This document shows, in pieces, positions 7,359 through 64,000 of a DNA stretch of 64,000 bases (positions are counted from its first letter, which is position 1; each line of letters begins with the position of its first letter). A program made the position numbers and the translations under genes. The notes beneath the pieces were generated by a model, which was not told the origin of the DNA, did not search any database, and saw only the letters and a list, made by a program, of their open reading frames with translations. The DNA is taken from positions 2,977-66,976 of the forward strand of contig DASQSZ010000034.1 in assembly GCA_035642125.1 (NCBI GenBank), written 5' to 3'. This DNA comes from Streptosporangiaceae bacterium. GTDB taxonomy: Bacteria > Actinomycetota > Actinomycetes > Streptosporangiales > Streptosporangiaceae.

Positions 7359-7625
7359 CGCATCCACCCGATCTCACCCCGTGAAGTTCGGCCACCCTCA
7401 GCAAGCCACGAGACCAAGCCGACGTCAAGCGGCAGCCCAATACCCGAGCGGCTCGCTGACGCCGTCACCCACGGACCGCTCGCCTCAGTGGGGATGGCCT
7501 GCTCATCTTCGGCGCGTTCGGTGCGCGCTGACCGTCGTGTGCGCGCTTCGTGCGCGCAACGCCCCGGAATGCGAAACCAGCGATCTCCGCGAAGATCGTG
7601 TCTTCGAGGAAATCGCTGGTGAGAG

Positions 7626-7715
7626 CGGAGGCTCGGGGATTTGAACCCCGGATGGGCGGTAAACCCAAACCGCATTAGCAGTGCGGCGCCATAGACCTGA
7701 CTAGGCGAAGCCTCC
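7626..7715 (-). tRNA. tRNA-Ser (anticodon GCU), type II with long variable arm
   Basis: Manual cloverleaf: acceptor GGAGGCT/AGCCTCC, anticodon stem CCGCA/TGCGG with loop CTGCTAA, variable arm, T-arm CGGGG-TTCAAAT-CCCCG, discriminator G. Confidence 0.9.
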
Positions 7716-24089: not shown

Positions 24090-24878
24090 ATGACGCAGCA
24101 CGCAACGCGGCCCACATCCGCCCAGATCGCCGGAGCGGCCTGCCTCGGCCTCCTTGTCACCGGCATCATCGTCGTCGCCTTCCGCGGTTCGTGGGGAGCG
24201 CTCCGCGACGCCGCGCTCGCCGCGCATTTCGACCGCAACGCCGCCGGCCTCTACCCGTTCGCCGTGGACGGTCTCCTCGTCGTCGCGATCGTCGCTGCCG
24301 TTTTGCTTCGCCACGACCGTGGAGCACGGCGCTACTGCCTCGGCATCATCGGCGGCTACACCGTCGCGTCCTGGCTAATCAACTTCCTTCACGGGCTGGG
24401 GATGTTCCTGGCCGACCCGGCCACCGGCAAGCGGCCCGTACCACCGTGGCCCGTGGTCGTGGTGATCGCGACACTGGTGATCGCGTCGATTTTTTTGGGG
24501 TCTCACCTGCTGGTTTTCGTGTGGCGACATCTGTACCCCACCACGGGGGCCAGGCCCGAGGCGGCCGAGGTGTCGCAGGGCGCAACGCCCGCGTCGCAAG
24601 ACGCAACGCCGCGTGTTGAGCTGCCACCGACCAACCTCGAGCTGGCTAAGGCCGCCTTCCGGGAGAGCCTGGCCCCCGACCGCCAACGGCTGTCACAAAG
24701 AGCCCTAGTGGAACGGTATGGAATCAAGGCGCGACAGGCCGCGAAGGTCCAAGACGAGGTGAATCGCGAGCTGACCGCCGAGCACGCCGCACCGAGCTCC
24801 ACCGAGGCCACCGACGTCGCGGCGCAGCACACCCCGAACGGACGCGTCGACATCCGTGACGGGGCCGGTGGCCGCTGA
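24090..24878 (+). CDS. DUF2637-like membrane protein with C-terminal HTH
   Basis: 4 TM helices (AGAACLGLLVTGIIVVAF..., LYPFAVDGLLVVAIVAAVLL...) and RLSQRALVERYGIKARQAAKV; family typically precedes TraB-like genes in actinomycete elements. Confidence 0.75.
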   Translation: MTQHATRPTSAQIAGAACLGLLVTGIIVVAFRGSWGALRDAALAAHFDRNAAGLYPFAVDGLLVVAIVAAVLLRHDRGARRYCLGIIGGYTVASWLINFLHGLGMFLADPATGKRPVPPWPVVVVIATLVIASIFLGSHLLVFVWRHLYPTTGARPEAAEVSQGATPASQDATPRVELPPTNLELAKAAFRESLAPDRQRLSQRALVERYGIKARQAAKVQDEVNRELTAEHAAPSSTEATDVAAQHTPNGRVDIRDGAGGR

Positions 24879-27091
24879 TGGCACAACGCGGCGGCGACAA
24901 GCGGCGGAAGGGAAAACCGCCGCCGCTGCGCTACGCCCGCCCCGGGGACCCCACCACCCGCCTGTACGCCCTGCCCGACCCCGACGACATGCCCGCCGCC
25001 CTCCTCGAGGACGCCGAAGACATCGTCGAGCTCCAGCCCGAAGTCGTCGAGCCCGTCCCCGTCGACACCCCCAAACCGGCGGTGGCCGGATGGCTGACCG
25101 AACGTCAGGGACGGCTCGCCGACGCGCCCCGCATCACCCCGTCGTGGATGCGCAGCCGCGCCGAGCTCGCCTCCAACGCCCTGTTCATCGGCCGGTGGTA
25201 CGGGCACGTGTGGGGCTACTACGGCCTGCGCACCCCCGTCTATGCGGCCAGGCTGTGGATCCGGGCACCCAAGGGCGCGGCACGCATCACCGGCTGCTGG
25301 TACCGGTGGGTGATCGACGCCGAGGCCAGGCCCGCCGTGTCCAAAGCTGCCGCGGGTGAGACCGCGCAGTGGATCGCGGCGGCGACCACGCAGACCAACC
25401 GCACCAACAGCCGCCGCAAAGCGTCCCTGTGGGTCGGTGTGCCGGTCGTGTGGCTGGTGTGGGTCGCCGCGCACGTCCTGCCCGCCGCGGCCTGGGCCGC
25501 CATCGCGGCCGCGGTGCTGTCCGGGCTGGGCTGGGCCGGCAGGCAGACCGATCGGCCGATCGTGCACCGCTACGTCGCCGTCCGCATGCAGCGGCGCCTC
25601 GAATCCGCCGAGGTCGAGACGGCACTGGAGGCGATCGGCGTCAAGGGCCGGGTGGACTGGATCAATCCGATCGCCGTGGATGGACCCGGCTGGCTCGCCG
25701 AGCTGGACCTGCCCGGCGCGGCCCTGGCCGATGAGGTGCTGGAGAAGCGTCCGCAGCTCGCGGCGGCGATGCGCCGGCCGCTGGGCTGCGTGTGGCCGGA
25801 GAACGACAAGGCGGCTCATCCTGGCCGGCTGCGGTTGTGGGTGGCGCGTGAGGACCCGGCGAAGGCGAAGCGGCGGCTCTGGCCGCTGATGTACGAGGGG
25901 CAGGCCGATCTGTGGAAGCCGAGCCCGTTCGGGTTCGACCCGCGTGGCCGGCTCGTCGAGGTCGAGCTGATCGGCACGAACTGGCTGATCGGCGGCGTGA
26001 TGGGGTCCGGGAAGACCTCGGCGGTGCTGACACTCGCGCTGCTCGCCGCCCTAATGCCGACCGCTGAGCTGCACATCTACGAACTGAAGGGGTCCGGTGA
26101 CCTGCAAGCAGTCGAGGACGTCGCCCGCGTGTACGTCTCCGGCGACGACGACGAGGACTGCGAGGCCGCGCTCAACGGGATGCGGTGGCTGAAGAAGGAA
26201 CTCAAACGCCGCAAAGACATCGTCAAAGCGCTTCCCCTCTCGGACGTCCCGAACGGCCGGAAGGTGTCCGCCGCGCTGGCAGCGCGCCGTGAGCTGGGCC
26301 TGCACCCGATCGTCGCGATCTTCGACGAGGTACACACCCTGTTCGAGCACGACGAGTACGGGCCGCCCGCCGCGAAAGACGGTGCCGACCTGATCCGCAA
26401 GGCCCGCGCGTACGGGATCATCCTGATCCTCACCACGCAGCGGCCCGACAAGAACTCCGTCCCGAAGCCGATCAGCGACAACGCGATCCTGCGGTTCTGC
26501 CTCGCGGTCACCGGGCACCTGGCGAACAACCTGATCCTGGGCACCGGCGCGTACGCGCGTGGTGTACGGGCGACGATGTTCGACCCGCAGCACGACGCAG
26601 GCACCGGCTGGCTGGCCCGGTCCGCGTTGAACGCGCAGATCGTGCGGGCCGCATTCATCACTCAAGCCGAGGCGCACGCCATCGGGCAGCGCGCCAAGGC
26701 GCTGCGGATCGCCGCCGGGACGATGCCCGAGCAGCGAGGGCTGGAGTCCGTCGAGCCCGATGAGGACATCCGGGACCACCTGCGCGCGGTGTGGCCGGCG
26801 GGTGAGGACACGATGCATTCGCACAAGCTCGTCGAGGCGCTGGCCGCCTACCGCCCGGACGAGTACGGGCCGTGGATCGCCACGGACGTGCCCGAGTCGG
26901 AGATGGACGAGGCGGCGCTTCGGGAGCTGCGGACGTTGCGGTCGACGATGCTCGCGACGGCGGTCAAGCCGTTCGGGATCCAGACGCGGCAGATCAATAA
27001 GCGGGGCGCGGGAGGGTCCGCGAAGGGTCTTCGCTTCGTCGACATTGAGGCCGCCGAACGGGCCGACGAGCCCGAGTTGGAGGACGCCTGA
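24878..27091 (+). CDS. FtsK/SpoIIIE-family dsDNA translocase, TraB/TraSA-like
   Basis: 737 aa; two N-terminal TM helices; Walker A GGVMGSGKTS; Walker B IVAIFDEVHTLF; ILILTTQRPD; ATG overlaps the upstream stop (TGATG). Confidence 0.9.
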   Translation: MAQRGGDKRRKGKPPPLRYARPGDPTTRLYALPDPDDMPAALLEDAEDIVELQPEVVEPVPVDTPKPAVAGWLTERQGRLADAPRITPSWMRSRAELASNALFIGRWYGHVWGYYGLRTPVYAARLWIRAPKGAARITGCWYRWVIDAEARPAVSKAAAGETAQWIAAATTQTNRTNSRRKASLWVGVPVVWLVWVAAHVLPAAAWAAIAAAVLSGLGWAGRQTDRPIVHRYVAVRMQRRLESAEVETALEAIGVKGRVDWINPIAVDGPGWLAELDLPGAALADEVLEKRPQLAAAMRRPLGCVWPENDKAAHPGRLRLWVAREDPAKAKRRLWPLMYEGQADLWKPSPFGFDPRGRLVEVELIGTNWLIGGVMGSGKTSAVLTLALLAALMPTAELHIYELKGSGDLQAVEDVARVYVSGDDDEDCEAALNGMRWLKKELKRRKDIVKALPLSDVPNGRKVSAALAARRELGLHPIVAIFDEVHTLFEHDEYGPPAAKDGADLIRKARAYGIILILTTQRPDKNSVPKPISDNAILRFCLAVTGHLANNLILGTGAYARGVRATMFDPQHDAGTGWLARSALNAQIVRAAFITQAEAHAIGQRAKALRIAAGTMPEQRGLESVEPDEDIRDHLRAVWPAGEDTMHSHKLVEALAAYRPDEYGPWIATDVPESEMDEAALRELRTLRSTMLATAVKPFGIQTRQINKRGAGGSAKGLRFVDIEAAERADEPELEDA

Positions 27092-29652: not shown

Positions 29653-30000
29653 CTACATCCGCACCGGCGGGGCCACCTTCGCGGCCGGGGTGACGTTCTG
29701 CCTCAACAGCAGCGCCAACACAATGCTCACTGCGGCCACCGTCGCGCCGATCTGATCCGCCGACAGATCCAACCCGAACGCTGCCACAGCCGCCAGCGCG
29801 GTACCCACCGCGCCGGTGATGGCCGGCACCACGACCGGGCGGGTCGTCGCGGCTGTCCAGACGGTGACGAAGGCGGTGGCCAGGGTGGTGAGGGCGCCGG
29901 TCATGTCCGCCGTGAGGGGCAGGCCGTAGGCCACGAGCAGCGCCACCGCCACGTTGACCGCGTACACCACCACGGCCGGTTCGAACTTGAGGTGATTCAT
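29653..30000 (-). CDS. holin-like membrane protein
   Basis: 115 aa with 3-4 TM helices; last gene of the lysis cassette; start MNHLKFEP after AAAGGAGG. Confidence 0.55.
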   Translation of the reverse strand: MNHLKFEPAVVVYAVNVAVALLVAYGLPLTADMTGALTTLATAFVTVWTAATTRPVVVPAITGAVGTALAAVAAFGLDLSADQIGATVAAVSIVLALLLRQNVTPAAKVAPPVRM

Positions 30001-30060
30001 CGCAGACCTCCTTTGGCATGCGACAGGGCGCCGCACACGCGAGCGCCACGAATAGGGGGG

Positions 30061-30399: not shown

Positions 30400-31194
30400 T
30401 CAGTCCTCCTTTGCCGCGAGTAGCGCCTTGACCTCGGCGAGCTCGGCCCTGACGTCGGCCGCCAACTGGTCGACCTTCTTGTCCACCACGATCAGACCCT
30501 GGATGGTTTGCTTGCGCACCGAGTCGCGGCCCCACGTGGGGTTCTTGGCCGGGTCGAACCCAGGGTTGCCGTCCGGGTCGAACCCGTCGGCCGGGTTGCT
30601 GCCCGGCGCGGGGACGGCGTCGGCCGTCATGACCTTCTCGGCCTCTTCTCGAACGATCTTCCTCAGCTGTGCCTCGGTGAATGGCATGTCGTCCTCCTGC
30701 TTGGACGGTCTCGGCGCGCCCTTGCGGACCCACACATACAGCGGGCCGCCCGGGCACGAGGTGGAATGGAAGTCACGGTGACCCTTGATGCCCCGACCGG
30801 CGCCGCGGGCCCGCATGTAATCGATGGCGTCCCGCACCGCGGCGAGCAGCGCGGGCGGGATGATGGTGTCGCCGTCGCCGACCAAGGCGCACACGGCGTA
30901 CCAGTACTGGTTGCCGGAGTTGGTGCCCTGTGCGGCCGAGCGGTGGCCGAGCCCGCGGCCCTCGAACACATAGCCGTGATGGCAGACCAGGAAGTTGTAG
31001 GCGATGGCCGCCCACCCGTTGCCGCCCACGTGCTGGGATTCGATGCTCCGCACGCGGGCCGCGCACTTGGAGTGCGGGATGGTGGCGAGCCTCCCGACGC
31101 CGACGTAGTGCACGGCGACGCCGCCGGACGGGGTGATGTTCGTTGGGCCCTTGCCGTACCGGGCGCCCCACGCGGCGTGGGTGATCAGCTTCAC
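30400..31194 (-). CDS. N-acetylmuramoyl-L-alanine amidase (PGRP/Amidase_2) endolysin
   Basis: GVAVHYVG, AIAYNFLVCHHGYVFEGRG and HRDFHSTSCPG motifs; C-terminal ~90 aa are low-complexity plus coiled coil rather than a known wall-binding domain; GTG start. Confidence 0.9.
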   Translation of the reverse strand: MKLITHAAWGARYGKGPTNITPSGGVAVHYVGVGRLATIPHSKCAARVRSIESQHVGGNGWAAIAYNFLVCHHGYVFEGRGLGHRSAAQGTNSGNQYWYAVCALVGDGDTIIPPALLAAVRDAIDYMRARGAGRGIKGHRDFHSTSCPGGPLYVWVRKGAPRPSKQEDDMPFTEAQLRKIVREEAEKVMTADAVPAPGSNPADGFDPDGNPGFDPAKNPTWGRDSVRKQTIQGLIVVDKKVDQLAADVRAELAEVKALLAAKED

Positions 31195-46338: not shown

Positions 46339-47727
46339 TTAGCGGGCTGCCAGCTCCACAAACGGGGACAGGCTGTTGCCGCCGTTACGGGGGGTGATCG
46401 CCGAGGAGATCCACGGGCGGCCGTCGACCCGCTGGATGATGCGGTAGGCGGTCTGGTCGTTGCCGAACTTCCAATCCGTCGAGCTCGAGGCGGTCATGGA
46501 TTGGCGGTCGCCGATCAGGTAGTAGGACAGGTCGACGAAGGCGATGTCGCCGCGGTTACCGAGGGCGCCGGCCTTTTCGGTGACGACGATGGGCCGGCCG
46601 AACAGAGTGGAGGGGCCCTGGTTGGCGGCGTTGACGATGAACACCGAGTTGCCGCCGGTCCCGACTGACAGGGCCATGGTGAACAGCTCGGGGATGGTGT
46701 CCGGGGAGATCAGCCATACCGCCCGGTTCAGGCTGGAGGGGAGCATCCGGGCGTACATCTTGACGATGTTCTCGTAGACGATCGTGTCGGCTGGCTGCCC
46801 GGTTTCGGCGTCGACCGCGATGCCCGCCGAGTTGCCGGCGCCCAAAAAGCCGAGCGGCTGGCCTGTGCCGTTCCCCGTCATGAACGCGTCGTCTTCCTCG
46901 AACGCGAGCACCATCGGCCACAGCCGCTCGATCAACGCTGAGAAGGAGATGATCGAGTCCTGGAGCAGCTCGTTCGGCACGACGGAAAGGCCGGTGAGTT
47001 TGTTGGCGTCGAGCATGACACGGCCGAACGTCGGGTTCGCGTCTGTCAGCGCGGCGCTCTCCTCGGCCCAGTAGGCGATCATCCCGCCGAACAGGCTGGA
47101 GGCGTTGGAGGTGACGTCGATCGTGGGGAACGGCACCCTTGCGCTGTCCATGGGGACGACGGTGGCGCGGGACCGCACGACCGCCATCTCGATGGCGACC
47201 TCGAGTAGTTGGGAGCGAAGGTTCTCCGGCACGAGGTAGCCGCCGTCGGCCGGGACGCTCGAGGACGCGGCGTTGGTGATCTGCCGGATCTCGGCCAGCT
47301 TCGCGGCGTTTTCGGGGTCGGGGTTGAGGTGCCAGACGGTCTTGAAGTAGTCGGTGGCGGTGTTGAACTTGCCGTCGACGAGGGCGCCGGGGGCGTGGGG
47401 GTTGTGCGCGGCGCCCTGCCCGTAGGAGGTGAGCATCCTGGTGCGCTTGCCGCCGCCGGCTTGGGGGTTGAGGTTGAGCCGGTTGATCCGTTCGGCGTTG
47501 TCGCTGTCGACGTCCTTGTCTTTGATCAGCTGGGCGAGCTGCCGCTGAGTCTCCTCGGCGACCAGCCGGTTGAGGTCAGTGCCGGAGCCTTGGGCCTTCT
47601 CGGCGTAGGCGTCGATGAACTTCACCAGCCCGCCGGGTGAGGCAAGGATGTTCTTAAGTTGAACCTGGTCGGCGACCATTTCCGCGAGCTCTTCCGAGTT
47701 GCGCGGGATGGTCTGTGTGGGTGCCAC
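46339..47727 (-). CDS. major capsid protein, HK97-fold family
   Basis: 462 aa; GGYLVPENLRSQLLE, FGRVMLDANKL and PLGFL motifs; N-terminal delta-like coiled coil; GTG 47727 after GAAGGAGG. Confidence 0.9.
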   Translation of the reverse strand: MAPTQTIPRNSEELAEMVADQVQLKNILASPGGLVKFIDAYAEKAQGSGTDLNRLVAEETQRQLAQLIKDKDVDSDNAERINRLNLNPQAGGGKRTRMLTSYGQGAAHNPHAPGALVDGKFNTATDYFKTVWHLNPDPENAAKLAEIRQITNAASSSVPADGGYLVPENLRSQLLEVAIEMAVVRSRATVVPMDSARVPFPTIDVTSNASSLFGGMIAYWAEESAALTDANPTFGRVMLDANKLTGLSVVPNELLQDSIISFSALIERLWPMVLAFEEDDAFMTGNGTGQPLGFLGAGNSAGIAVDAETGQPADTIVYENIVKMYARMLPSSLNRAVWLISPDTIPELFTMALSVGTGGNSVFIVNAANQGPSTLFGRPIVVTEKAGALGNRGDIAFVDLSYYLIGDRQSMTASSSTDWKFGNDQTAYRIIQRVDGRPWISSAITPRNGGNSLSPFVELAAR

Positions 47728-47740
47728 TGGGTTGCCTCCT

Positions 47741-48718
47741 TCAGGCTTCCATCGCCGCGCCGGACGACGCTGAGTCGATGAGATGGGCGATTGCCGCGGA
47801 CCAGTCGTCCCTCGGGGGCTGGGTGAGCGGAGCGATCGTGTCCGTCCACCAGTCCGGGGTGTCGTCGGCCGGCAGGTTGTCCTGGTGGTCCTCGGAGCCG
47901 GATGGCTTGTGCCCATTGAGGGTGGCCACCACCGAGGCGGCGTCAGGGTCGATACCAACCAGCTCTGAGCCTTGCTCGCCTTCGAAGCTGGCGGGGATCT
48001 TCGGCGGCGGAGGGGCCTGCGTCCGGCCGGCGTAGAAGAAACACGTCAGATCGTGCTTCGCCGCGGCGGCCACGCCCTCCGGCTCTGGCTCGTCCCGCTG
48101 CCGCTTGCTGCCGGTGATGGTCTCATCAGCCAGCTTGGCTTCGACGGCCTCGGCGGCGTTGTACCAGGTCTCCGTCCGCATCCGCTGCCGCCAGTCCTCG
48201 GCGGTGCCGCCGGCGCGGTCGGCGTAGATCCCGGCGATCGTGTCGGAGACGCGGGCGAGGAGGCCGGCCATCTCGGTCATGTCGGCTTCGTTGCCGATGC
48301 ACATGCCGAGCGCGTCGTGGATCATCATCTGGCTGGCGCGGTTCATGCGGATGATGTCGCCGGCCATCGCGATGAACGAGGCGGCGCTCGCGGCGAGCCC
48401 GTCGACGGTGACGGTCACCCGGCCGTCGTGGTCGAGCAACATGTTGTAGATGGCGACGCCGTCGAAGACGTCACCGCCCGGGCTGTTGATCTTCACATGG
48501 AGGTCGCCGGTCACACCGGTCAGCCGGTCGGCGATGTCTTGGGCCATCACCCCGAACCAGCCGATCTCGTCGTAGATCATCAGCTCGGTGGGGCCGTCAG
48601 CCTGGGCCTTGACCTGCAGCCGGGGGCGTCCCTCGACTTTCGGCCGGGGCCGCTGGTTGCGCGCCTTCAGCAGCTGCCACACCTGGCCGATCAGGTCCCG
48701 GTCCACCGCGTAGCTCAT
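47741..48718 (-). CDS. head maturation protease (ClpP/S14-like)
   Basis: LMIYDEIGWFG...INSPGGDVFDGVAIYNML...AASAASFIAMAGD...MIHDA; ATGA overlap with the portal gene. Confidence 0.9.
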   Translation of the reverse strand: MSYAVDRDLIGQVWQLLKARNQRPRPKVEGRPRLQVKAQADGPTELMIYDEIGWFGVMAQDIADRLTGVTGDLHVKINSPGGDVFDGVAIYNMLLDHDGRVTVTVDGLAASAASFIAMAGDIIRMNRASQMMIHDALGMCIGNEADMTEMAGLLARVSDTIAGIYADRAGGTAEDWRQRMRTETWYNAAEAVEAKLADETITGSKRQRDEPEPEGVAAAAKHDLTCFFYAGRTQAPPPPKIPASFEGEQGSELVGIDPDAASVVATLNGHKPSGSEDHQDNLPADDTPDWWTDTIAPLTQPPRDDWSAAIAHLIDSASSGAAMEA

Positions 48719-51399
48719 GGGGTTTCTCCTGGCATCGGCACGTGCTCCTTCTCCTGCCACTGCGACTTGTCGGAGCCGGGCCGCCACACGACCACGACGT
48801 GTCCGCGGCAGCGGTCCCGGCCTTCGCAGCGGATGTAGCCGCCAGTCGGGTACTCCTCGACGGCCTGAGCGATGTCGAGGCCGAGGAACCGGCCGTCGAC
48901 CTCGCGGCAGTACCGACAGGTGTTGGTGTCGAGGACTTCGGACCCGTAGTACGCCGGCACCGGGCCACCACCGTCAGTGGGGATCGCCGAGTAGGTAGAC
49001 ATGCGGCCGGCGTGCTGGGCCTTGTGCAGGGCGCCGCCGAGCCGGTCCCGAGTCCCCGCCTCCGACAGGCCATTCAGGTGCGTTCGTACGGAGTCGGCCA
49101 CGTCTCGGCCGGAACGACCTGGCCCGGCCTGACGCAAGGCCTCGCCCGCCGCGGCGGCGACCAGCCCCGCCGCGAGCAACGCGACCACCACAGCGGCCAC
49201 CGCGACCATGTCACCCTCAGCCGGCGGCACCGGCTCTACCGTCACGTCCTGCGCCGCGGCCTCGGCCGTCACTTGCCCGGCGGCGTCGGCCCCCAGCGTG
49301 GCCATCGCCTCGACGAGCGCGCGCTGCGCCTCCTCGGTAGGGGCGGTCATGGCCGGCAGGGCGGCGAGGTCGCCATCGTCGACGATCTGCTGTACCTGCC
49401 CGGCCAGATTGTTGACCTGATTGCTCTGGATGCGCTGCCAGTCGTCGGCGATCTGCTCGAGCGCCTGATCGTAGGACTGCTGGACGGGGGCGAGGTCGGG
49501 CAGCTCCGGCGTGTCGGCCTCCTCCGCGCGGGGCCGGCGGTCGGCGGTCGACCGGGCCGGCGGACCAGCCTGGAAGTGCACGTCCGTACGGTCGTCGCCG
49601 TGCACCACCGACAACGCATCGAAGGTCACGTCGGCCGGCTCGATCTCCTCCACCGGCGAGTCGGAGCCCGGCTTGAGGTATGTCAGCGTGATGTGCGCCA
49701 TGAACCCGTGGTCGCGCGGTACCTCGATCCCGGCCTCGGCCAGCCTGGCGAGCACGTCGCGGCGGAGGTCTTCGAGGTCGGCCGAGTCGATGAGGGCGAC
49801 GATGACGTCGCCGTCTTCGCCGCCGACGAAGCGGGCCAGCCCCGAGATTTGGGCGGTGATGGGGGCGCGGCGGGCGAGAACCTCGCCGGCCGCACGCAAC
49901 GCCGTGGGGTCGACAGTGTCGGCTTTGCCGCAGTAGGCGACCGTGAGGTGGAGCTCGTCGGCGGGCAGGCCGCCGTCGACGGTGAGCTGAGCTGCGAGGT
50001 CGGCTGGGGGGTAGAGGGCGAGCATGCAGCCGGTGGAGTAGTCGGGGGCTTCGGCGGCGGGAAGCGCGCGGCGCGCGCTGTCACCGATCTGATCACGGAG
50101 CCAGTCGATGACGAGGTCGGCCAGCGCTGGCCCCTCCTCCACCGGAACAGCATCTGGCTCAGCCAGCGGAGCCGGGGCGATGGTGACGCGCATCTTCGGC
50201 AGCCCGCACACCTCAGCCGCGTCATCCGGGTGCACACCGGCGTCACGGAGGATCTTGTACGCCTCGGCCTTGGAGGTGAGTTCCCGGTCGTCGGCCTCCC
50301 GATCCGCCGGCACCGGCGAGTCGTAATCCCACTCCAGATCCTCGGCGGTAGAGCCGAACATCGGCAGCAACCGGAAGTTGAGCACGTCCCGCGTCGCGTC
50401 CAACCTGGGCACAGACTTCCAGCGGGCGAAGATGTACTCGGCGGCCTCCATGTTCGCCCTGTTCGTGTCGTCAACCGTGCCCAACATCGGCCTTGGGAAG
50501 GCGAACGCTTCGCGGACGATCTCCCGGGGGACGTCGCGGAGCTCACGGAACTGCATGTCCCGGTTGGTGAACGCCCTCGGCACCCATTTGCCGCCCTGCT
50601 CGATCAGCGCGACCCGGTGAGCGTTCGCGACTCCTTTGTGCTGCTCGTTCCACCGGGTGCGGAGCCGGTTGTAATCGATGTCGGACAGTTCCTCTTCGAA
50701 CTCGATGATTCCGCCCGGCTCAGAGCTATTTTCAAAAAACCGCCGGTTCCATTCCGCCGCATACCGTGAGGATTCGACGTCGGTGAGGATCGTTTGGACC
50801 GCGCCCATCCCCCGGTACGGATCGAGTGGGTTCGGGTCCCGCATGAAGATGACCTGGTCCAACGTGAGCGCGACCTGCTCGCCGTCGGGGCCGGTGTACA
50901 TGTAGCCGAGCAAGTAGCGCTCGGGGTGCGGGACGGGGGTCATGCGGTCCGGGCGGACCGGCCACAACTCCAACGGCAGCTTGAAACGCTCATTGGAGAC
51001 GACCACCCACCAGCCCTCACCAACGAGGTCGCGGTGCTGCTGGTAGGTCTTGATGAACTCCGCCCGGTGCATGAACGGGTTGGGCTTGTTCCACAGGTCG
51101 ATCGCGGCGTGACTGGTGACCTCTTGGCGTTCGTCGGGGTCGCCGCTCTTGGCTTTTCGGTAGAGGTGCCATTCGGGGCCGGCGGTGGCGTCGCCGAGCA
51201 GGGAGACGATCGCGAAGAGGGTGCCCATGCCGCCCATGGCGCGCATTTGGGCTTCTTGTCCGCGGGGGTTGAGGCCGAAGATGCCGGGGAGTTGCAGGGC
51301 GGCGGTGTGGCGGCCGACGTAGGGGACCGGGGACTCGCCCGGCGTGGCGGTGCGGGCGGTGGCCTTGTCGACGATCTTTCCGACGAGAGTCTTCGTCAT
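48715..51399 (-). CDS. portal protein fused to a 2H (LigT-like) phosphoesterase domain and a MuF/SPP1-gp7-like head-morphogenesis domain
   Basis: Portal N-terminal half; HLTV and HITL motifs 85 aa apart (nt ~49573-50040); C-terminus DTNTCRYCREVDGRF...CRG is typical of Phage_Mu_F; ATG 51399 (ATGA coupling) preferred to GTG 51411. Confidence 0.85.
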   Translation of the reverse strand: MTKTLVGKIVDKATARTATPGESPVPYVGRHTAALQLPGIFGLNPRGQEAQMRAMGGMGTLFAIVSLLGDATAGPEWHLYRKAKSGDPDERQEVTSHAAIDLWNKPNPFMHRAEFIKTYQQHRDLVGEGWWVVVSNERFKLPLELWPVRPDRMTPVPHPERYLLGYMYTGPDGEQVALTLDQVIFMRDPNPLDPYRGMGAVQTILTDVESSRYAAEWNRRFFENSSEPGGIIEFEEELSDIDYNRLRTRWNEQHKGVANAHRVALIEQGGKWVPRAFTNRDMQFRELRDVPREIVREAFAFPRPMLGTVDDTNRANMEAAEYIFARWKSVPRLDATRDVLNFRLLPMFGSTAEDLEWDYDSPVPADREADDRELTSKAEAYKILRDAGVHPDDAAEVCGLPKMRVTIAPAPLAEPDAVPVEEGPALADLVIDWLRDQIGDSARRALPAAEAPDYSTGCMLALYPPADLAAQLTVDGGLPADELHLTVAYCGKADTVDPTALRAAGEVLARRAPITAQISGLARFVGGEDGDVIVALIDSADLEDLRRDVLARLAEAGIEVPRDHGFMAHITLTYLKPGSDSPVEEIEPADVTFDALSVVHGDDRTDVHFQAGPPARSTADRRPRAEEADTPELPDLAPVQQSYDQALEQIADDWQRIQSNQVNNLAGQVQQIVDDGDLAALPAMTAPTEEAQRALVEAMATLGADAAGQVTAEAAAQDVTVEPVPPAEGDMVAVAAVVVALLAAGLVAAAAGEALRQAGPGRSGRDVADSVRTHLNGLSEAGTRDRLGGALHKAQHAGRMSTYSAIPTDGGGPVPAYYGSEVLDTNTCRYCREVDGRFLGLDIAQAVEEYPTGGYIRCEGRDRCRGHVVVVWRPGSDKSQWQEKEHVPMPGETP

Positions 51400-51665
51400 C
51401 CGCTGCGCCACGACAAAAGCAGGCAGCTGACGCCCGCGGCGGCGATGCCGGCCGGGTGCGCGATTTCCCAGGCGGCGTAGGACAGGAGGCCGAGGCCTCC
51501 GGTGTCGAGGGCGAGGGCGCGGATGGTGGCCCAGCGGGGGGTGAGTTTCGCGGCGGCCCGGCCGAGCCGGATGGCGAGGGGGACGCGTGGCGGGCGGGGC
51601 TTCCGGGTGGCGCGCTCGTTGGAGTAGGCGGCGCGCGCGGTGCCGAGACTGCCGACCATCGTCAT
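51396..51665 (-). CDS. small membrane protein (89 aa)
   Basis: ORF-track entry with C-terminal TM helices; lies upstream of the portal gene. Confidence 0.4.
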   Translation of the reverse strand: MTMVGSLGTARAAYSNERATRKPRPPRVPLAIRLGRAAAKLTPRWATIRALALDTGGLGLLSYAAWEIAHPAGIAAAGVSCLLLSWRSG

Positions 51666-52220: not shown

Positions 52221-52520
52221 TCACGTCACATCTCGTGGCGTTCGAAACTGGTAGATCCGGTATCCGTCGTCGGTGACATGGTCGGTCCAGCGGTAGTCGG
52301 CGGTCGGCGGCAACAGCCGGAAGGACGGGCCCTCTATGTCGGCCATCAGCCACGAGATCGGGGCCGGTTCGGGCTGCCGCCAGACGTACGGGAGTTGGGG
52401 CCAGCGGAACCGCTTCCCGTCGTTGAGGCCGCCGCGCAACTCAATCAGGTACGGCTTGTCGGCCCACTCGTCGCGGTTGAGGTCGCGTAGATCGGTCACC
52501 CACAACCCTCCTACATCCAC
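52221..52520 (-). CDS. hypothetical protein (99 aa)
   Basis: ORF-track entry; overlaps the TerL stop by 10 nt. Confidence 0.5.
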   Translation of the reverse strand: MDVGGLWVTDLRDLNRDEWADKPYLIELRGGLNDGKRFRWPQLPYVWRQPEPAPISWLMADIEGPSFRLLPPTADYRWTDHVTDDGYRIYQFRTPRDVT

Positions 52521-53899
52521 CGAATATTCGGCCGACCCCGCAAATCCCGATGCGCCACCACATACCGCAACGCATCACACCCGTCGTCCTGGTCCTTAAC
52601 AGGCTCCTCCTTCAGCTGACCGCCCGGCTTCACCGCCCACACATAGCCCGGAATCTCCTCCGCCGTACACGCCGGCCGCTTATCGTCCACCAGCTGCTGA
52701 TCCCGCTCCACCACACTGTCCCGAAGAATGGCCAGCCGCGGCCGACCGTCACCCGCGACCTTCAGCCGGGACTGTCCGGCCTGCAGCCCGGCCAGAACCT
52801 TCTTGTTCGCCGGCACGGTGGACATCCCCAGGTGCTTTTGCAGGGTGGCCCGCCCTTCGGCGTCGTGGTCGCAGATCACCGCGCGCGGCGGCGGCTCGAT
52901 CCAGCGGCGCCGGCCGTGCGCGATGGCGGTGGCGAGCGGTTCGTCCTCGAGCTGGGCGACGCCGGGCACCGGCTCGGTGACGATCGAGAGGATTTGTTTC
53001 GCGTGGTCCTCGACGAGGCGCCGGGTGTGGAAGATCTCCCGGTAAAGGAACAGGCGGCCGTCGGGATCTTCAGCCCAATTCTGCAAGACGAACGGGTGGG
53101 TGTAGCCGAAGTCCACTGACCACCAGCGGGGCCAGGCGTCGGGGATGGGGAACCGGTCGACCAGGTGCAGTGCGGGGTCCCAGCCCTCATAGATGAGGCC
53201 TTCGGCGGCGACCCAGAGGCCTTTGCGGAGGCGGAGGTAGCGGACGCCGGTGAGCTTGTCCAGCTTGCCTTCGATGTAGGCCCGGCCGGCCTCGGTCATG
53301 GTGCCGGCGTCGGTGAAGTAGATCGGGTTGTCCTCGTGCCGGGATTCGAGGAAACGCGTGGCGCCGCGGTCGCAACGCTGCTTCAGCCAATGCGTTGGCT
53401 GGGCCGGGTTGGTGTCGGCCATCAGCTGCTGGTAGGGCAGTCGGCCGTTGCGGAGCCGGGTGGTGATGGCCTCCCAGTCGTCCTCGATCAGCTCGATGGC
53501 CTCTTGGACGAAGCAGACGTCGTACTCCGACGACATGATCTTCGTTGCTTTGTCCATGCCGCCGACGGTGATGGTGGAGCCGTTGCGGTAGCGGTATTGG
53601 GCGGCTTCTTGCTGGCTGCCGCCGTACCAGCGGACCTCGCCGTGTGCGAGGGCTTCCTTGGCGACGTGTTCGCGCCAGGTGACGAGGGCGGTGGAGCCGA
53701 GCGACACCTGGGTTTTCCGGACGATCAAGGCCCGCATGCCCGGGTATTTGAGGGCTTGGAGGTGGAGTTTTTCTAGGCAGGCGCGTGATTTTCCGGTGCC
53801 GGCGGGGCCGGATAGGAGAATTTCGGGGGCGCGGTTTTCGAGCAGCTGCTTGGCGGCGCCGCGGGGTTGGTAGGTGTGGGTGACCGTCGCGATGGTCAT
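52511..53899 (-). CDS. terminase large subunit
   Basis: Walker A LLSGPAGTGKS; ATPase and nuclease halves; FVQEAIEL Walker B-like; 462 aa. Confidence 0.95.
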   Translation of the reverse strand: MTIATVTHTYQPRGAAKQLLENRAPEILLSGPAGTGKSRACLEKLHLQALKYPGMRALIVRKTQVSLGSTALVTWREHVAKEALAHGEVRWYGGSQQEAAQYRYRNGSTITVGGMDKATKIMSSEYDVCFVQEAIELIEDDWEAITTRLRNGRLPYQQLMADTNPAQPTHWLKQRCDRGATRFLESRHEDNPIYFTDAGTMTEAGRAYIEGKLDKLTGVRYLRLRKGLWVAAEGLIYEGWDPALHLVDRFPIPDAWPRWWSVDFGYTHPFVLQNWAEDPDGRLFLYREIFHTRRLVEDHAKQILSIVTEPVPGVAQLEDEPLATAIAHGRRRWIEPPPRAVICDHDAEGRATLQKHLGMSTVPANKKVLAGLQAGQSRLKVAGDGRPRLAILRDSVVERDQQLVDDKRPACTAEEIPGYVWAVKPGGQLKEEPVKDQDDGCDALRYVVAHRDLRGRPNIRWM

Positions 53900-57347: not shown

Positions 57348-58613
57348 TTACCCCGCAGTCCATGGGTTGGCGTCGGTCGGCGCGGGCTTGCGGCGGAAGA
57401 TGGTCGCGGGCCGGCCGCCGGTCGGAAGCTCGGCGGACTCGTACTCCTCCATGCCGGTCAGCAGATCCAGTAGCCGGTCGAGGTCGGTGCGGGACTTGTG
57501 GTTGCGGAACAGGTCCTTGGCGATCCGGTTGCGGCTGACACCTTTGAGGCCGTGGCCGTCGACGTATTCCATGAGCCGGCCGAGGTCGGGGTTTCCGCCG
57601 CTGCCGCCGAAGACGTAGTCGATGGTGGCGCGTACGTAGTTCCAGGCGGCGAGCGCCGCGATCAGGTGCTGCTCGTCGACTTCGTCGCGGCCGTCGAGCA
57701 GGGTGTAGATGACCGATAGGCGGATGACCTGGGGGACGGCGCGGGCGCAGATCCAGGCGACGGGGCCTTCGGGGAGGTTCTCGGGGGTGAGCTCGTCGTA
57801 GTAGTGGTGCCACAGCTTGCGGGCCGCGGGTGTGCGGGTGATGCGGCCGACGTTGCGGGTGCGCTGCTTGACGTCCTTGAGGCTGGCGGCGAGGTAGGCG
57901 AGGACGTCGTCGGGGATTCCACCGCCGTCGGGGAGCCGTTTGGAGCGCACGGAGTAGACGGGCAGGAAGCGGTTGATGGTGCCGCCGGCCATATCGGCCG
58001 CGGTGAGTTTGGCGACGAGCTCGGTGGGGGTGATCTGGCCGATGACGCCGATGTGGTGGCCTGTGGCGGTGAGGGCGTTGACCTTGCGGGTGAGGGTTTG
58101 GAGGCGTTTGCCGTCCCAGACGTCGCGGATGATGGGCGCGAGGGCGTTGCCTTCTTTGCGGGCACGGGTGAGCACGCTGGCGAATTCGGCCTCGATGATG
58201 ATGCGGCGTTTGTCGTGGACGCCTTCGTCGAAGCCGTCGGCTTCGGGGTCGAGGCCGTTGCCGTCGCGGACGAGTTCGATGAGGCCTTCGGGGGTGGATA
58301 GGCCGGAGACGATGTTGGTGGTGGCGAAGGTGATGTCGGCGGTTTCGAGGACGCGGGAGATGGCGTTCCAGCTGGTGCCTTTCATGCCGTTGGCGGTGGG
58401 GCCGACGATGAGGGGCCACAATCTGGCGGGGTGGATGGCGTCGCCGGCGAACATGTGGGCTTGGGGTTTGAGGTAGATGCCGGTGGCGGCGAGGAAGGTG
58501 AACAGGACTGCGGCGCGGCTGGCTTCGGTGTGGGGGTCGATGAGGTGTACGGCTTCGCCGGGGAGGCCGTGGAGGGCTGTTTCGGGGAGGCGGGGTGGTG
58601 GGGCTGTGGTCAT
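57348..58613 (-). CDS. DUF3987-like (YfjI-type) replication/helicase-like protein
   Basis: 421 aa; P-loop-like GPTANGMKGTS; overall pattern of DUF3987 proteins of phages and ICEs; C-terminal wHTH. Confidence 0.75.
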   Translation of the reverse strand: MTTAPPPRLPETALHGLPGEAVHLIDPHTEASRAAVLFTFLAATGIYLKPQAHMFAGDAIHPARLWPLIVGPTANGMKGTSWNAISRVLETADITFATTNIVSGLSTPEGLIELVRDGNGLDPEADGFDEGVHDKRRIIIEAEFASVLTRARKEGNALAPIIRDVWDGKRLQTLTRKVNALTATGHHIGVIGQITPTELVAKLTAADMAGGTINRFLPVYSVRSKRLPDGGGIPDDVLAYLAASLKDVKQRTRNVGRITRTPAARKLWHHYYDELTPENLPEGPVAWICARAVPQVIRLSVIYTLLDGRDEVDEQHLIAALAAWNYVRATIDYVFGGSGGNPDLGRLMEYVDGHGLKGVSRNRIAKDLFRNHKSRTDLDRLLDLLTGMEEYESAELPTGGRPATIFRRKPAPTDANPWTAG

Positions 58614-60413: not shown

Positions 60414-60853
60414 GGCAGCTTGATCCGTTCGTGCCAGGCCAGGTCACGGAGGGCTTGCGGCCAGGAGTTGAAGCGGATGCCGCGGTCGTCGATGTAGGCG
60501 ACGGCGGGGAGTTTCTGGTTGGTGACCAGCACCGCGGTCGTGTCGTTCCAGAACTTCGGCACGGTGGCCGGGTCTTCGTGCCAGGCCGTCTCGATTCCGC
60601 TGCGCTGTTTGATCCACCGCGCGACCTGGACCGGGTCGCGAGTCGTGTGGACGAAGATGGCCACCCCGGCGTCCATGAGGGCCCGGATGGCGTCGAGGGC
60701 GCCGGGGATCGGTTCGTCGTAGATGGTGCCGTCGGCCCAGCCTTTGGTGTAGGCGTGGATGACGCCGTCGAAGTCGACGGCGACGGTTTTGGGGTGGGCG
60801 GCGGCCCGGGCGGTGTTGGCCGCCCGGGCACCGCTTGGGATACCGCTCGTCAT
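60410..60853 (-). CDS. HAD-superfamily phosphatase (5'(3')-deoxyribonucleotidase-like)
   Basis: DxDG motif VAVDFDGVIH; HTTR; C-terminal YIDDR. Confidence 0.65.
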   Translation of the reverse strand: MTSGIPSGARAANTARAAAHPKTVAVDFDGVIHAYTKGWADGTIYDEPIPGALDAIRALMDAGVAIFVHTTRDPVQVARWIKQRSGIETAWHEDPATVPKFWNDTTAVLVTNQKLPAVAYIDDRGIRFNSWPQALRDLAWHERIKLP

Positions 60854-61671
60854 GCCGGGGTTCCATGCATGACCTTGCCCTTGGTCGCCTCCTCCACCTG
60901 CTTGACCACATCGAGCACCGCGTCACGGATCACCGCGGCCGGGTCGTCCAGCAGGTAGGCGACGAGGAGCTTGCCGTTCTCGACCCGGTACCGGAACCGG
61001 GCCGAGATCTCGTACGGGTCGGCGAACTCGAACGGCGCCACACCGATCTTGAAGGCGGTCGGGACGGCGATGTTGCCGGAGTTCCCGGCCGTCGCGTCGG
61101 TGGTCTCCTCGAAGTGCAGCTTGTGGTTGCCGTTGTCGAGGCGGACGTTGGAGGTGAACCGGACCTTGGTCGCCGTCTGGAAGTTCTGGACGACCTCGAG
61201 CATGGTGGCGCCGTTCGGGTCGCGGATGTCGTCGACGTGTTCCTCGACGAACTCGGCGAACGCTGATTGGGCGAACGGCTTGCCGTTCATGGCCATCCAG
61301 GCGTCCCACCGGTCGGTGGTCGGCAGGGTGAGGACGAGGCGGTGCTGTCCCCAGCGGGCCCCGTCGGCGCCGCCCTGGTTGGCGTCGAGGACGGCGGTGA
61401 GGTAGTGGCCGGTGATGTTGACGTAGATCTCGGTGCCGTCGTCGGAGTGCTTTTGGTAGTAGTGGAGGAAGGAGTCGAGGTCGTCGACGTAGACCTTCCC
61501 GGCCTTGTGTTTGGGCTGGTCGCGGTACTCATCGCCGGTCAGGTCGATCTGGTGGACGGCGCCGCCGGGGAGGGCCCAGCCGTAGATTTTGCCGGGCTCG
61601 AGCTCACGCGGGTCGGTGGTGGCGATCGCGGTTTCGACGATGGTCTGCATTTCGTTGTCGGTGGCGGTCAT
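60850..61671 (-). CDS. DUF2303 (YfdQ-like) family protein
   Basis: 273 aa; size and pattern (FLHYYQKH..., RVRFTSNVRLDNG, FEF...YEI..RFRYR) resemble phage YfdQ/DUF2303 proteins. Confidence 0.65.
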   Translation of the reverse strand: MTATDNEMQTIVETAIATTDPRELEPGKIYGWALPGGAVHQIDLTGDEYRDQPKHKAGKVYVDDLDSFLHYYQKHSDDGTEIYVNITGHYLTAVLDANQGGADGARWGQHRLVLTLPTTDRWDAWMAMNGKPFAQSAFAEFVEEHVDDIRDPNGATMLEVVQNFQTATKVRFTSNVRLDNGNHKLHFEETTDATAGNSGNIAVPTAFKIGVAPFEFADPYEISARFRYRVENGKLLVAYLLDDPAAVIRDAVLDVVKQVEEATKGKVMHGTPA

Positions 61672-63791: not shown

Positions 63792-64000
63792 ACGACGACC
63801 TTTTCCGGTTGCTGGTCAGCGGCGTCTTCACCAATCACCAGCTGGCCGGGGATCGGCGGCGCGCACTTCGAGCACAACCGCCCGGCGACAGGGGGCGACC
63901 CGGGGGCGGTCGCGCCCCAGCCCCAGGTGCACCATTCCGGCGGGATCCCGCAGGCCCGTGCCTCAGCTTCGATCGCGTGGATCTGCTCGGCGATCTCGGG
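63788..64000 (-). CDS. hypothetical Cys-containing protein, C-terminal fragment (gene starts beyond the window)
   Basis: Open minus frame ...PEIAEQIHAIEAEARACGIPPEWCTWGWG...CSKCAPPIPGQLVIGEDAADQQPEKVVV*; ATGA overlap with the next gene. Confidence 0.4.
   Translation of the reverse strand, partial: PEIAEQIHAIEAEARACGIPPEWCTWGWGATAPGSPPVAGRLCSKCAPPIPGQLVIGEDAADQQPEKVVV

Follow-up and report, generated by a model that had tools for sequence, protein, structure and literature searches.

One gene of a prophage in a Streptosporangiaceae bacterium encodes a phage portal domain, a 2H phosphoesterase module of ~165 residues, and a MuF-like head-morphogenesis domain in a single polypeptide chain. The gene lies on the minus strand of a 64,000-nucleotide stretch of contig DASQSZ010000034.1 (GenBank assembly GCA_035642125.1, positions 2,977 to 66,976), referred to here as the window. 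The 2H module has both catalytic motifs intact and is predicted from its sequence to be a cyclic or 2′-5′ phosphodiesterase. It may be a capsid-loaded enzyme that is released and degrades host immune nucleotides in the newly infected cell, a tentative reading of the analysis that is given slightly less than an even chance. Sequence-based studies of 2017 and 2022 had already described both the architecture and the idea of capsid-loaded counter-defense, and the window holds a further example.

The fusion protein and its domains

The open reading frame (ORF) specifies 898 residues from a GTG codon. The ATG at 51399, four codons further on, overlaps the stop codon of an upstream 89-residue ORF as ATGA and is probably the real start, which yields 894 residues and bears out the ~894-residue ORF described in an earlier note on this DNA. 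Residue numbers here refer to the 898-residue form, in which the segment assigned to the 2H domain by the earlier note (49573–50040) corresponds to residues 458–613. The fusion gene overlaps its neighbors by 4 bp at the start and stop alike. The G+C content at third codon positions (GC3) is 0.73–0.93 in every 60-codon segment of the ORF, a uniformity that indicates one coding frame without a hidden junction. An identical 894-residue gene-caller product is present on six independent soil-metagenome contigs from various JGI and ENA samples, and three homologues (P0002–P0004) share the domain order; the fusion is thus not an assembly chimera.

The assignment of a complete 2H domain, made in the earlier note from motifs, is upheld by profile, fold, and motif evidence at a level well removed from chance. 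The Pfam family PF13563 (2_5_RNA_ligase2; gathering score 27) matches residues 479–607 with 46.9 bits in the whole protein and 51.6 bits in the isolated segment (E 1.4e-13), on which LigT_PEase (PF02834) also scores 29.1 bits against a cut-off of 23.3. In addition, the domain fits positions 699–881 of the 891-position family phrog_2659 (“RNA ligase”) at 7e-20. Structure prediction, which had been proposed as a check for residues ~455–615, recovers the 2H fold: the AlphaFold2 (AF2) model of residues 456–625 has a mean predicted local distance difference test (pLDDT) score of 90.2 and a predicted template-modeling (TM) score of 0.85. Foldseek returned 50 PDB fold matches at E ≤ 1e-3, each of them to a 2H-fold protein and almost always to a 2H phosphoesterase. 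At the top stand the Deinococcus 2′,3′-cyclic phosphodiesterase (CPDase) drCPDase (5h7e; E 9e-9, TM 0.72), TT0787 (1iuh), and E. coli LigT/ThpR (5ldm), followed by phage Acb1-type proteins (9q2y, 7t26/7t27; TM 0.48–0.57) and then by rotavirus VP3, Usb1, and AKAP18.

Members of the 2H superfamily have two H-x-T/S motifs, one per half of the duplicated fold; here these are H488-L-T490 and H573-I-T575. The peptides singled out in the earlier note are all in place, namely MLALYPP at residues 463–469 (50005–50025), ELHLTVAYCGK at 486–496 (49924–49956), and FMAHITLTYLK at 570–580 (49672–49704), and the two motif histidines are 85 residues apart as it had said. Met463 was considered as an internal start and rejected, because free-standing homologues too have this residue without exception, likewise at an internal position. 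The histidine and threonine of both motifs are invariant among close relatives. In the wider subfamily, for which architectures and motifs were counted in the 150 best of 4718 representative clusters, H-x-T/S is kept in 149 (motif 1) and 147 (motif 2) of the 150; this near-universal conservation indicates selection for catalysis.

On profile evidence, the module is a bona fide 2H domain of its own clade that reaches neither the Acb1 nor the ThpR cut-off. Membership of the Acb1 family (PF23474, cut-off 27 bits) was tried and rejected at 20.7 bits for the whole protein and 25.5 bits for the segment, with a phmmer E value of 0.09 to the 9q2g chain. The ThpR equivalog TIGR02258 (“RNA 2′,3′-cyclic phosphodiesterase”) is the sole NCBIfam 2H match and was likewise rejected, at 34.7 and 39.1 bits against 65.7. 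Searching PDB sequences with a profile gave marginal values (E ~0.02–0.05) that are about equal for archaeal, Thermus, and Acb1 chains, while the fold is nearer to the bacterial CPDase/ThpR type than to Acb1. With Acb1 (phage T4 gp57B/FBB1; 7t26, 7t27, 9q2g), whose solved chains have 137–165 residues, the module shares phage origin, the 2H fold (Foldseek E 1e-5 to 1e-6), and two alignable H-x-T motifs, and some sister proteins do exceed the PF23474 cut-off (e.g., P0002 with 31.1 bits). The link to Acb1 drawn in the earlier note is one of shared fold; family membership, which that note had not claimed, is weak. ThpR/LigT, drCPDase, and TT0787 are the best structural matches, but they have only 17–22% identity to the module, which is located inside a virion protein and belongs to a distinct clade, and is not an orthologue of theirs.

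The N-terminal part of the protein, to which the earlier note had assigned a portal, matches PF04860 with 186 bits (threshold 39.1), while the portal model TIGR01537 stays under its cut-off (86 versus 112 bits). The match to phrog_2662 and the 45% identity to the Dagobah portal agree, and the placement of the gene, with Terminase_3 upstream and ClpP protease and capsid genes downstream, fits a portal.

The C-terminal domain is more divergent. It is unmatched by PF04233 (Pfam, E ≤ 10) and TIGR01641 (NCBIfam, E ≤ 1), and none of the MuF PHROGs matched the protein. However, residues ~700–876 share 31% identity (BLASTP E 2e-16) with the first 300 residues of gp5 from Arthrobacter phage KBurrousTX. 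Annotated as a “MuF-like minor capsid protein”, gp5 has a Gln-deamidase toxin domain at its C-terminal end and an Imm35 gene after it, the hallmark of MuF polymorphic toxins. A profile–profile comparison (hhalign) of the window’s family with MuF, for which the PF04233-positive domain of P0156 served as seed, gives a probability of 95.1% and an E value of 3e-8 over 124 columns that include the D..C..C and CR[GC] motifs. The AF2 model of the domain (pLDDT 93.5) has BFVD matches along its entire length (E 1e-9 to 1e-3) to entries labeled as head-morphogenesis, minor capsid, or minor head proteins; Foldseek of the same model against the PDB copy returned nothing at E ≤ 0.001. The domain also shares an ORF with the portal, which is the positional criterion of the wider MuF superfamily. 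The earlier assignment of a MuF/SPP1-gp7-type domain is thus supported, by sequence and model comparisons, in the wide sense of Jamet’s MuF1–4, groups defined by HMM–HMM homology and by a place following the portal, but not in the strict PF04233 sense.

Cysteines C832, C835, C862, and C868 are invariant across 43 relatives and align with the D..RVC..C and H..CRC of canonical MuF; they form a cluster that probably binds Zn in the MuF-like domain. The segment DTNTCRYCREVDGRF spans residues 828–842, and CRG residues 868–870. In relative P0008, an intein (PF14890) sits exactly within the invariant motif DTNTCRYC (48907–48918), between DTNTC and RYC. Inteins usually occupy functionally critical sites, and this insertion marks the motif as important. 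With SPP1 gp7 and phage Mu gpF the domain shares its fold class, the D..C..C/CR[CG] region by profile–profile alignment, and association with the portal. Unlike them, it gives no direct hidden Markov model match and is covalently attached to the portal, which implies 12 copies versus the 1–2 quoted for gp7.

Relatives and published precedents

The portal-MuF family was surveyed through its 120 best relatives listed, which are mostly 650–780 residues long, annotated as portal, and come from Streptomyces, Actinomadura, Nonomuraea, Amycolatopsis, and metagenomes. These consist of a portal and the same C-terminal domain, and PF13563 is found in 4 of the 120, the window’s own protein included. In an alignment with the relatives that lack it, the 2H module stands out as a cleanly delimited insertion of ~170 residues in a variable linker rich in Pro and Ala, preceded by “...GLPKMRV” and followed by “PDLAPVQ...”. 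The family is polymorphic in other respects as well: P0102 is a single portal-MuF-ClpP chain with the protease at its end, P0101 contains a Gly-X-Y insert of collagen type and ends in a kinase-like domain, and P0002 combines the 2H module with a GNAT-like C-terminal tail.

In the word-indexed search, the sequences closest to the 2H block, P0002–P0004 aside, are free-standing proteins of ~200 residues with 48–57% identity. The gene of one of them, P0126 (195 residues, 51% identity), lies between a portal gene and a ClpP-protease gene and overlaps each by 4 bp. Its locus (L010, a 55-kb phage contig) has the gene order of the window without the fusion and without a MuF domain. The position of P0126 makes the fusion look like a merger of neighboring head-module genes. 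The word-indexed searches returned 8 proteins for the 2H segment and 6 for the C-terminal segment, probably because Ala-rich words dominate, and an exhaustive search of representatives was used instead.

This exhaustive profile search yielded the 4718 representative clusters at E ≤ 1e-3, 2949 of them at E ≤ 1e-10. The 2H subfamily is mostly multidomain, and MuF, portal, and prohead protease are its recurrent identified partners: 134 of the 150 best representatives (89%) exceed 260 residues, and at least 42 contain a MuF-type domain, with the 2H domain N-terminal to it in 39 of 42 and a median linker of ~93 residues. Pfam, applied to 79 of the 150, identified Phage_Mu_F (6), Zeta_toxin/AAA_33 (7/6), portal (3), and the prohead proteases S78/S78_2 (3) as well as inteins and NUDIX. 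P0156 is a 1288-residue chain of PF04860 portal, PF13563, and canonical PF04233 MuF (49.6 bits); P0212 combines portal, 2H, and head-morphogenesis domains, and P0240 combines Portal_Mu with 2H.

Among cultured phages, 304 actinophage records carry the 2H domain, which in those inspected lies in or beside the head-gene module. Examples such as Gordonia phage Dexdert gp18, GMA6, Streptomyces phage phiSAJS1 gp17, and the Cluster C mycobacteriophage gp92-like proteins belong to the same subfamily (30–38% identity, E to 2e-18) and are sited among portal, MuF, and capsid genes, although their carriers differ from the window’s in being 945–1256 residues long or solo proteins of 183 residues. Databases label 2H head-module proteins as “RNA ligase”, “capsid maturation protease”, or “portal protein”: gene 18 of MW314849.1 (GenBank) is an “RNA ligase” versus a “head maturation protease” in NC_053210.1 (RefSeq), and phiSAJS1 gp17 (NC_029005.2) is a “portal protein”. 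Annotation is thus inconsistent, and none of the labels fits a 2H phosphoesterase domain; “RNA ligase” and “capsid maturation protease” are misleading.

The proposal that phages probably package MuF- or portal-fused 2H domains in the head and inject them against nucleotide immune signaling was made by Iyer, Burroughs, Anand, de Souza, and Aravind in 2017 (PMC5512222, section 20) and again by Iyer et al. in 2022 (PMC9503650, section 3.4.5). The 2017 section lists RNase activity first and the degradation of 2′-5′ oligoadenylate or other defense nucleotides as the alternative, and states that these 2H versions never occur with RNA ligases. The window’s protein resembles the class as described there in its domain combination, its portal-terminase head module, the lack of an RNA-ligase partner, and the role proposed for it; P0156 is a database example of the class with a canonical MuF. 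It differs from the class, as far as that section describes it, in having all three parts in one chain with the 2H domain internal between portal and MuF, and in its MuF part, a divergent four-Cys variant missed by PF04233 and TIGR01641.

The MuF polymorphic toxins of Jamet et al. 2017 (PMC5576092) share a homologous MuF-like domain, a location in the head module beside or fused to the portal, variable enzymatic cargo, and occurrence in temperate phages or prophages. In contrast, the cargo in the window is N-terminal to MuF rather than C-terminal, and 2H is not a classical toxin domain. Assignment to this class was rejected: the ORF ends ~20 residues past the MuF-like domain, and the next gene encodes the prohead protease, with no adjacent immunity gene. 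The earlier note overstated the precedent in describing MuF-appended domains as known to be carried and delivered, since in Jamet et al. the delivery of MuF cargo is a hypothesis.

Candidate roles of the 2H module

Portals are dodecamers built into every procapsid, and the portal C-terminus faces the capsid interior. Because of this stoichiometry, 12 copies of the 2H module would enter each head, where the portal C-terminus would carry first the 2H module and then the MuF-like domain on flexible Pro/Ala-rich tethers. The module would be released by cleavage in the linkers, for which the ClpP-type prohead protease of the overlapping next gene is the most plausible enzyme, and would either exit the head with the DNA or work from the portal vertex. 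It would then hydrolyze cyclic oligonucleotides or 2′-5′-linked or 2′,3′-cyclic species of the type employed by the cyclic-oligonucleotide-based antiphage signaling system (CBASS), Pycsar, and type III CRISPR, so that abortive-infection signaling would be blunted ahead of any phage gene expression. The fully specified version, in which ClpP-excised modules are stored in ~12 copies, ejected with the DNA, and destroy immune nucleotides before transcription, with MuF as their dedicated packaging and exit partner, appears doubtful.

Several points weigh against a capsid-loaded enzyme acting in the new host. The portal remains in the particle and the 2H module is covalently joined to it, so that delivery needs a cleavage that is itself predicted. 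Twelve molecules per cell correspond to ~20 nM in 1 fL by our own estimate, a small dose relative to a signaling burst. Vinga et al. are said to have found in 2006 that SPP1 gp7, a MuF protein, is not detectably co-ejected in vitro. Unfused homologues of the P0126 type, encoded between portal and protease genes, mean that the head-module position may reflect late co-expression rather than packaging. The substrate is not inferable by orthology, since both the Acb1 threshold (25.5 versus 27 bits) and the ThpR threshold (39.1 versus 65.7 bits) are missed. Lastly, a literature search for virion-borne 2H enzymes or an Acb1–MuF link found no experimental study.

An RNA-directed function is unlikely but has evidence on its side. 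The module would heal the 2′,3′-cyclic-phosphate ends of tRNA or other RNA cut by host anticodon or abortive-infection nucleases, leaving the sealing to a host ligase, or it would act as a Usb1-like RNase, the option placed first by Iyer et al. in section 20 of the 2017 paper (PMC5512222). The best fold matches (5h7e, 1iuh, and E. coli LigT/ThpR) are RNA 2′,3′-cyclic phosphodiesterases, and the one NCBIfam 2H model that matches, TIGR02258, describes the same activity, albeit at a score far under its cut-off. A Zeta-toxin/AAA_33 P-loop kinase in 7 of 79 representatives recalls, by our own inference, the kinase and cyclic phosphodiesterase pair of Trl1-type tRNA ligases, although in the chains inspected these kinases lie apart from the 2H domain. 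Among the window ORFs scanned, for which 25 of 46 families are listed and whose prophage continues past base 64,000, there is no RNA ligase, RtcB, or polynucleotide kinase. This agrees with the remark of Iyer et al., in the section cited, that RNA ligases never accompany these domains.

A late-acting enzyme is a second, likewise unlikely, explanation. The module would work in the producing cell during head-gene expression, free or portal-bound, for example by destroying immune nucleotides made upon sensing of late structural proteins; the fusion would be incidental and packaging irrelevant. P0126, set between its portal and ClpP genes, and the solo 2H copy ~2 kb from the portal gene in Cluster C mycobacteriophages show that related phages keep the 2H gene in the head operon untethered. 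Timing alone, however, hardly explains the strong tendency of the subfamily toward covalent fusion with MuF, portal, prohead protease, and giant polyvalent proteins.

It is very unlikely that the 2H fold is non-enzymatic, i.e., a spacer that binds nucleic-acid ends or nucleotides and aids MuF and portal in handling the DNA end during packaging or exit. SPP1 gp7 binds DNA and controls genome exit, and the regular placement of 2H before MuF at a median distance of ~93 residues looks as if the two were one unit. Conversely, both H-x-T/S motifs are almost universal, and most members of the window’s portal-MuF family do without a 2H module, which makes it accessory to head assembly. That a frameshift or mis-assembly fused separate portal, 2H, and MuF genes, which related phages do keep apart, can practically be dismissed in view of the identical product on six contigs from differing JGI and ENA samples, the domain order of P0002–P0004, and a uniform GC3 without frame break.

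Prophage context and implications

Bases 1 to ~29,000 of the window hold ordinary actinobacterial chromosomal genes, while all genes from the holin and endolysin at 29.6–31.2 kb to the window end are on the minus strand and form tail, head, and early regions (Table 1). This junction of chromosomal genes on the left with a phage module on the right identifies a prophage, consistent with the presence of relatives in Streptomyces-type genomes.

The chromosomal part includes LytR_cpsA_psr (192–1892), an AMP-binding enzyme, LysE, Pirin, PCMT, sigma-70, AsnC/GntR/MarR regulators, DUF397, and a NUDIX/NADH pyrophosphatase, as well as tRNA-Ser(GCT) at 7625–7715. Just beyond the prophage end, a 737-residue FtsK/SpoIIIE-like ATPase (24878–27088, plus strand; phrog_1358, 2e-23) could be part of an actinomycete integrative conjugative element adjoining the prophage. 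The 89-residue ORF coupled to the portal gene (51396–51665, minus strand) matches a small phage membrane-protein family (phrog_502, 1.7e-6) and is oddly placed between terminase and portal. Early-region genes at 57348–58613 and 60850–61671, both on the minus strand, encode a DUF3987 protein and a DUF2303 protein (6e-53).

Table 1. Location of the fusion gene, its domains and motifs, and associated prophage genes in the window
Feature	Position	Strand	Evidence or remark
Whole ORF, portal-2H-MuF-like fusion	48715..51411	-	Uniform GC3; 894-residue product on 6 contigs
HK97-type portal domain, residues 65–393	50233..51219	-	PF04860 1e-54; phrog_2662 2.8e-65; 45% identity to Streptomyces phage Dagobah portal
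Linker 1, Pro/Ala/Glu-rich, residues 394–455	50047..50232	-	MAFFT alignment; length varies among relatives
2H phosphoesterase module, residues 456–613, inserted in linker	49573..50046	-	PF13563 51.6 bits; AF2 pLDDT 90.2; Foldseek PDB top 5h7e, 1iuh, 5ldm, 9q2y, 7t26; absent in closest non-2H relatives, e.g., P0005
Catalytic motif 1, H488-L-T490-V	49939..49950	-	Aligns with HLTL of TT0787 and HVTV of Acb1
Catalytic motif 2, H573-I-T575-L	49684..49695	-	Aligns with HITL of TT0787 and HLTL of Acb1
Linker 2, Arg/Pro/Glu-rich, residues 614–640	49492..49572	-	pLDDT drop at end of 2H model and start of C-terminal model; alignment
MuF-like head-morphogenesis domain, residues 641–878, long helices then small Cys-rich beta unit	48778..49491	-	AF2 pLDDT 93.5; BFVD folds; hhalign 95.1%; BLASTP 2e-16 to KBurrousTX gp5
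Cys cluster C832, C835, C862, C868 (DTNTCRYC ... C-x5-CRG)	48802..48930	-	Invariant in 43 sequences
ClpP-type prohead protease gene	47741..48718	-	PF00574; phrog_2976 7.6e-82; start overlaps fusion-gene stop by 4 bp
HK97-fold major capsid protein gene	46339..47727	-	PF05065
Large terminase gene, upstream, same head module	52511..53899	-	PF04466 Terminase_3
Holin	29653-30036	-	Prophage lysis end near 29.6 kb
Endolysin	30400-31194	-	Prophage lysis end

The example in the window has three confident domains, clear linkers, and an adjacent protease gene, and the many close relatives with the same portal-MuF chain minus the 2H insert are natural controls. The protein is therefore a convenient experimental entry point, although it adds no new principle. 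If the published prediction is true, phages carry ready-made capsid enzymes against nucleotide-based immunity, in contrast to the known Acb1-type enzymes, which are made only after entry. How CBASS, Pycsar, and type III CRISPR signaling are timed relative to phage countermeasures would then be seen differently.

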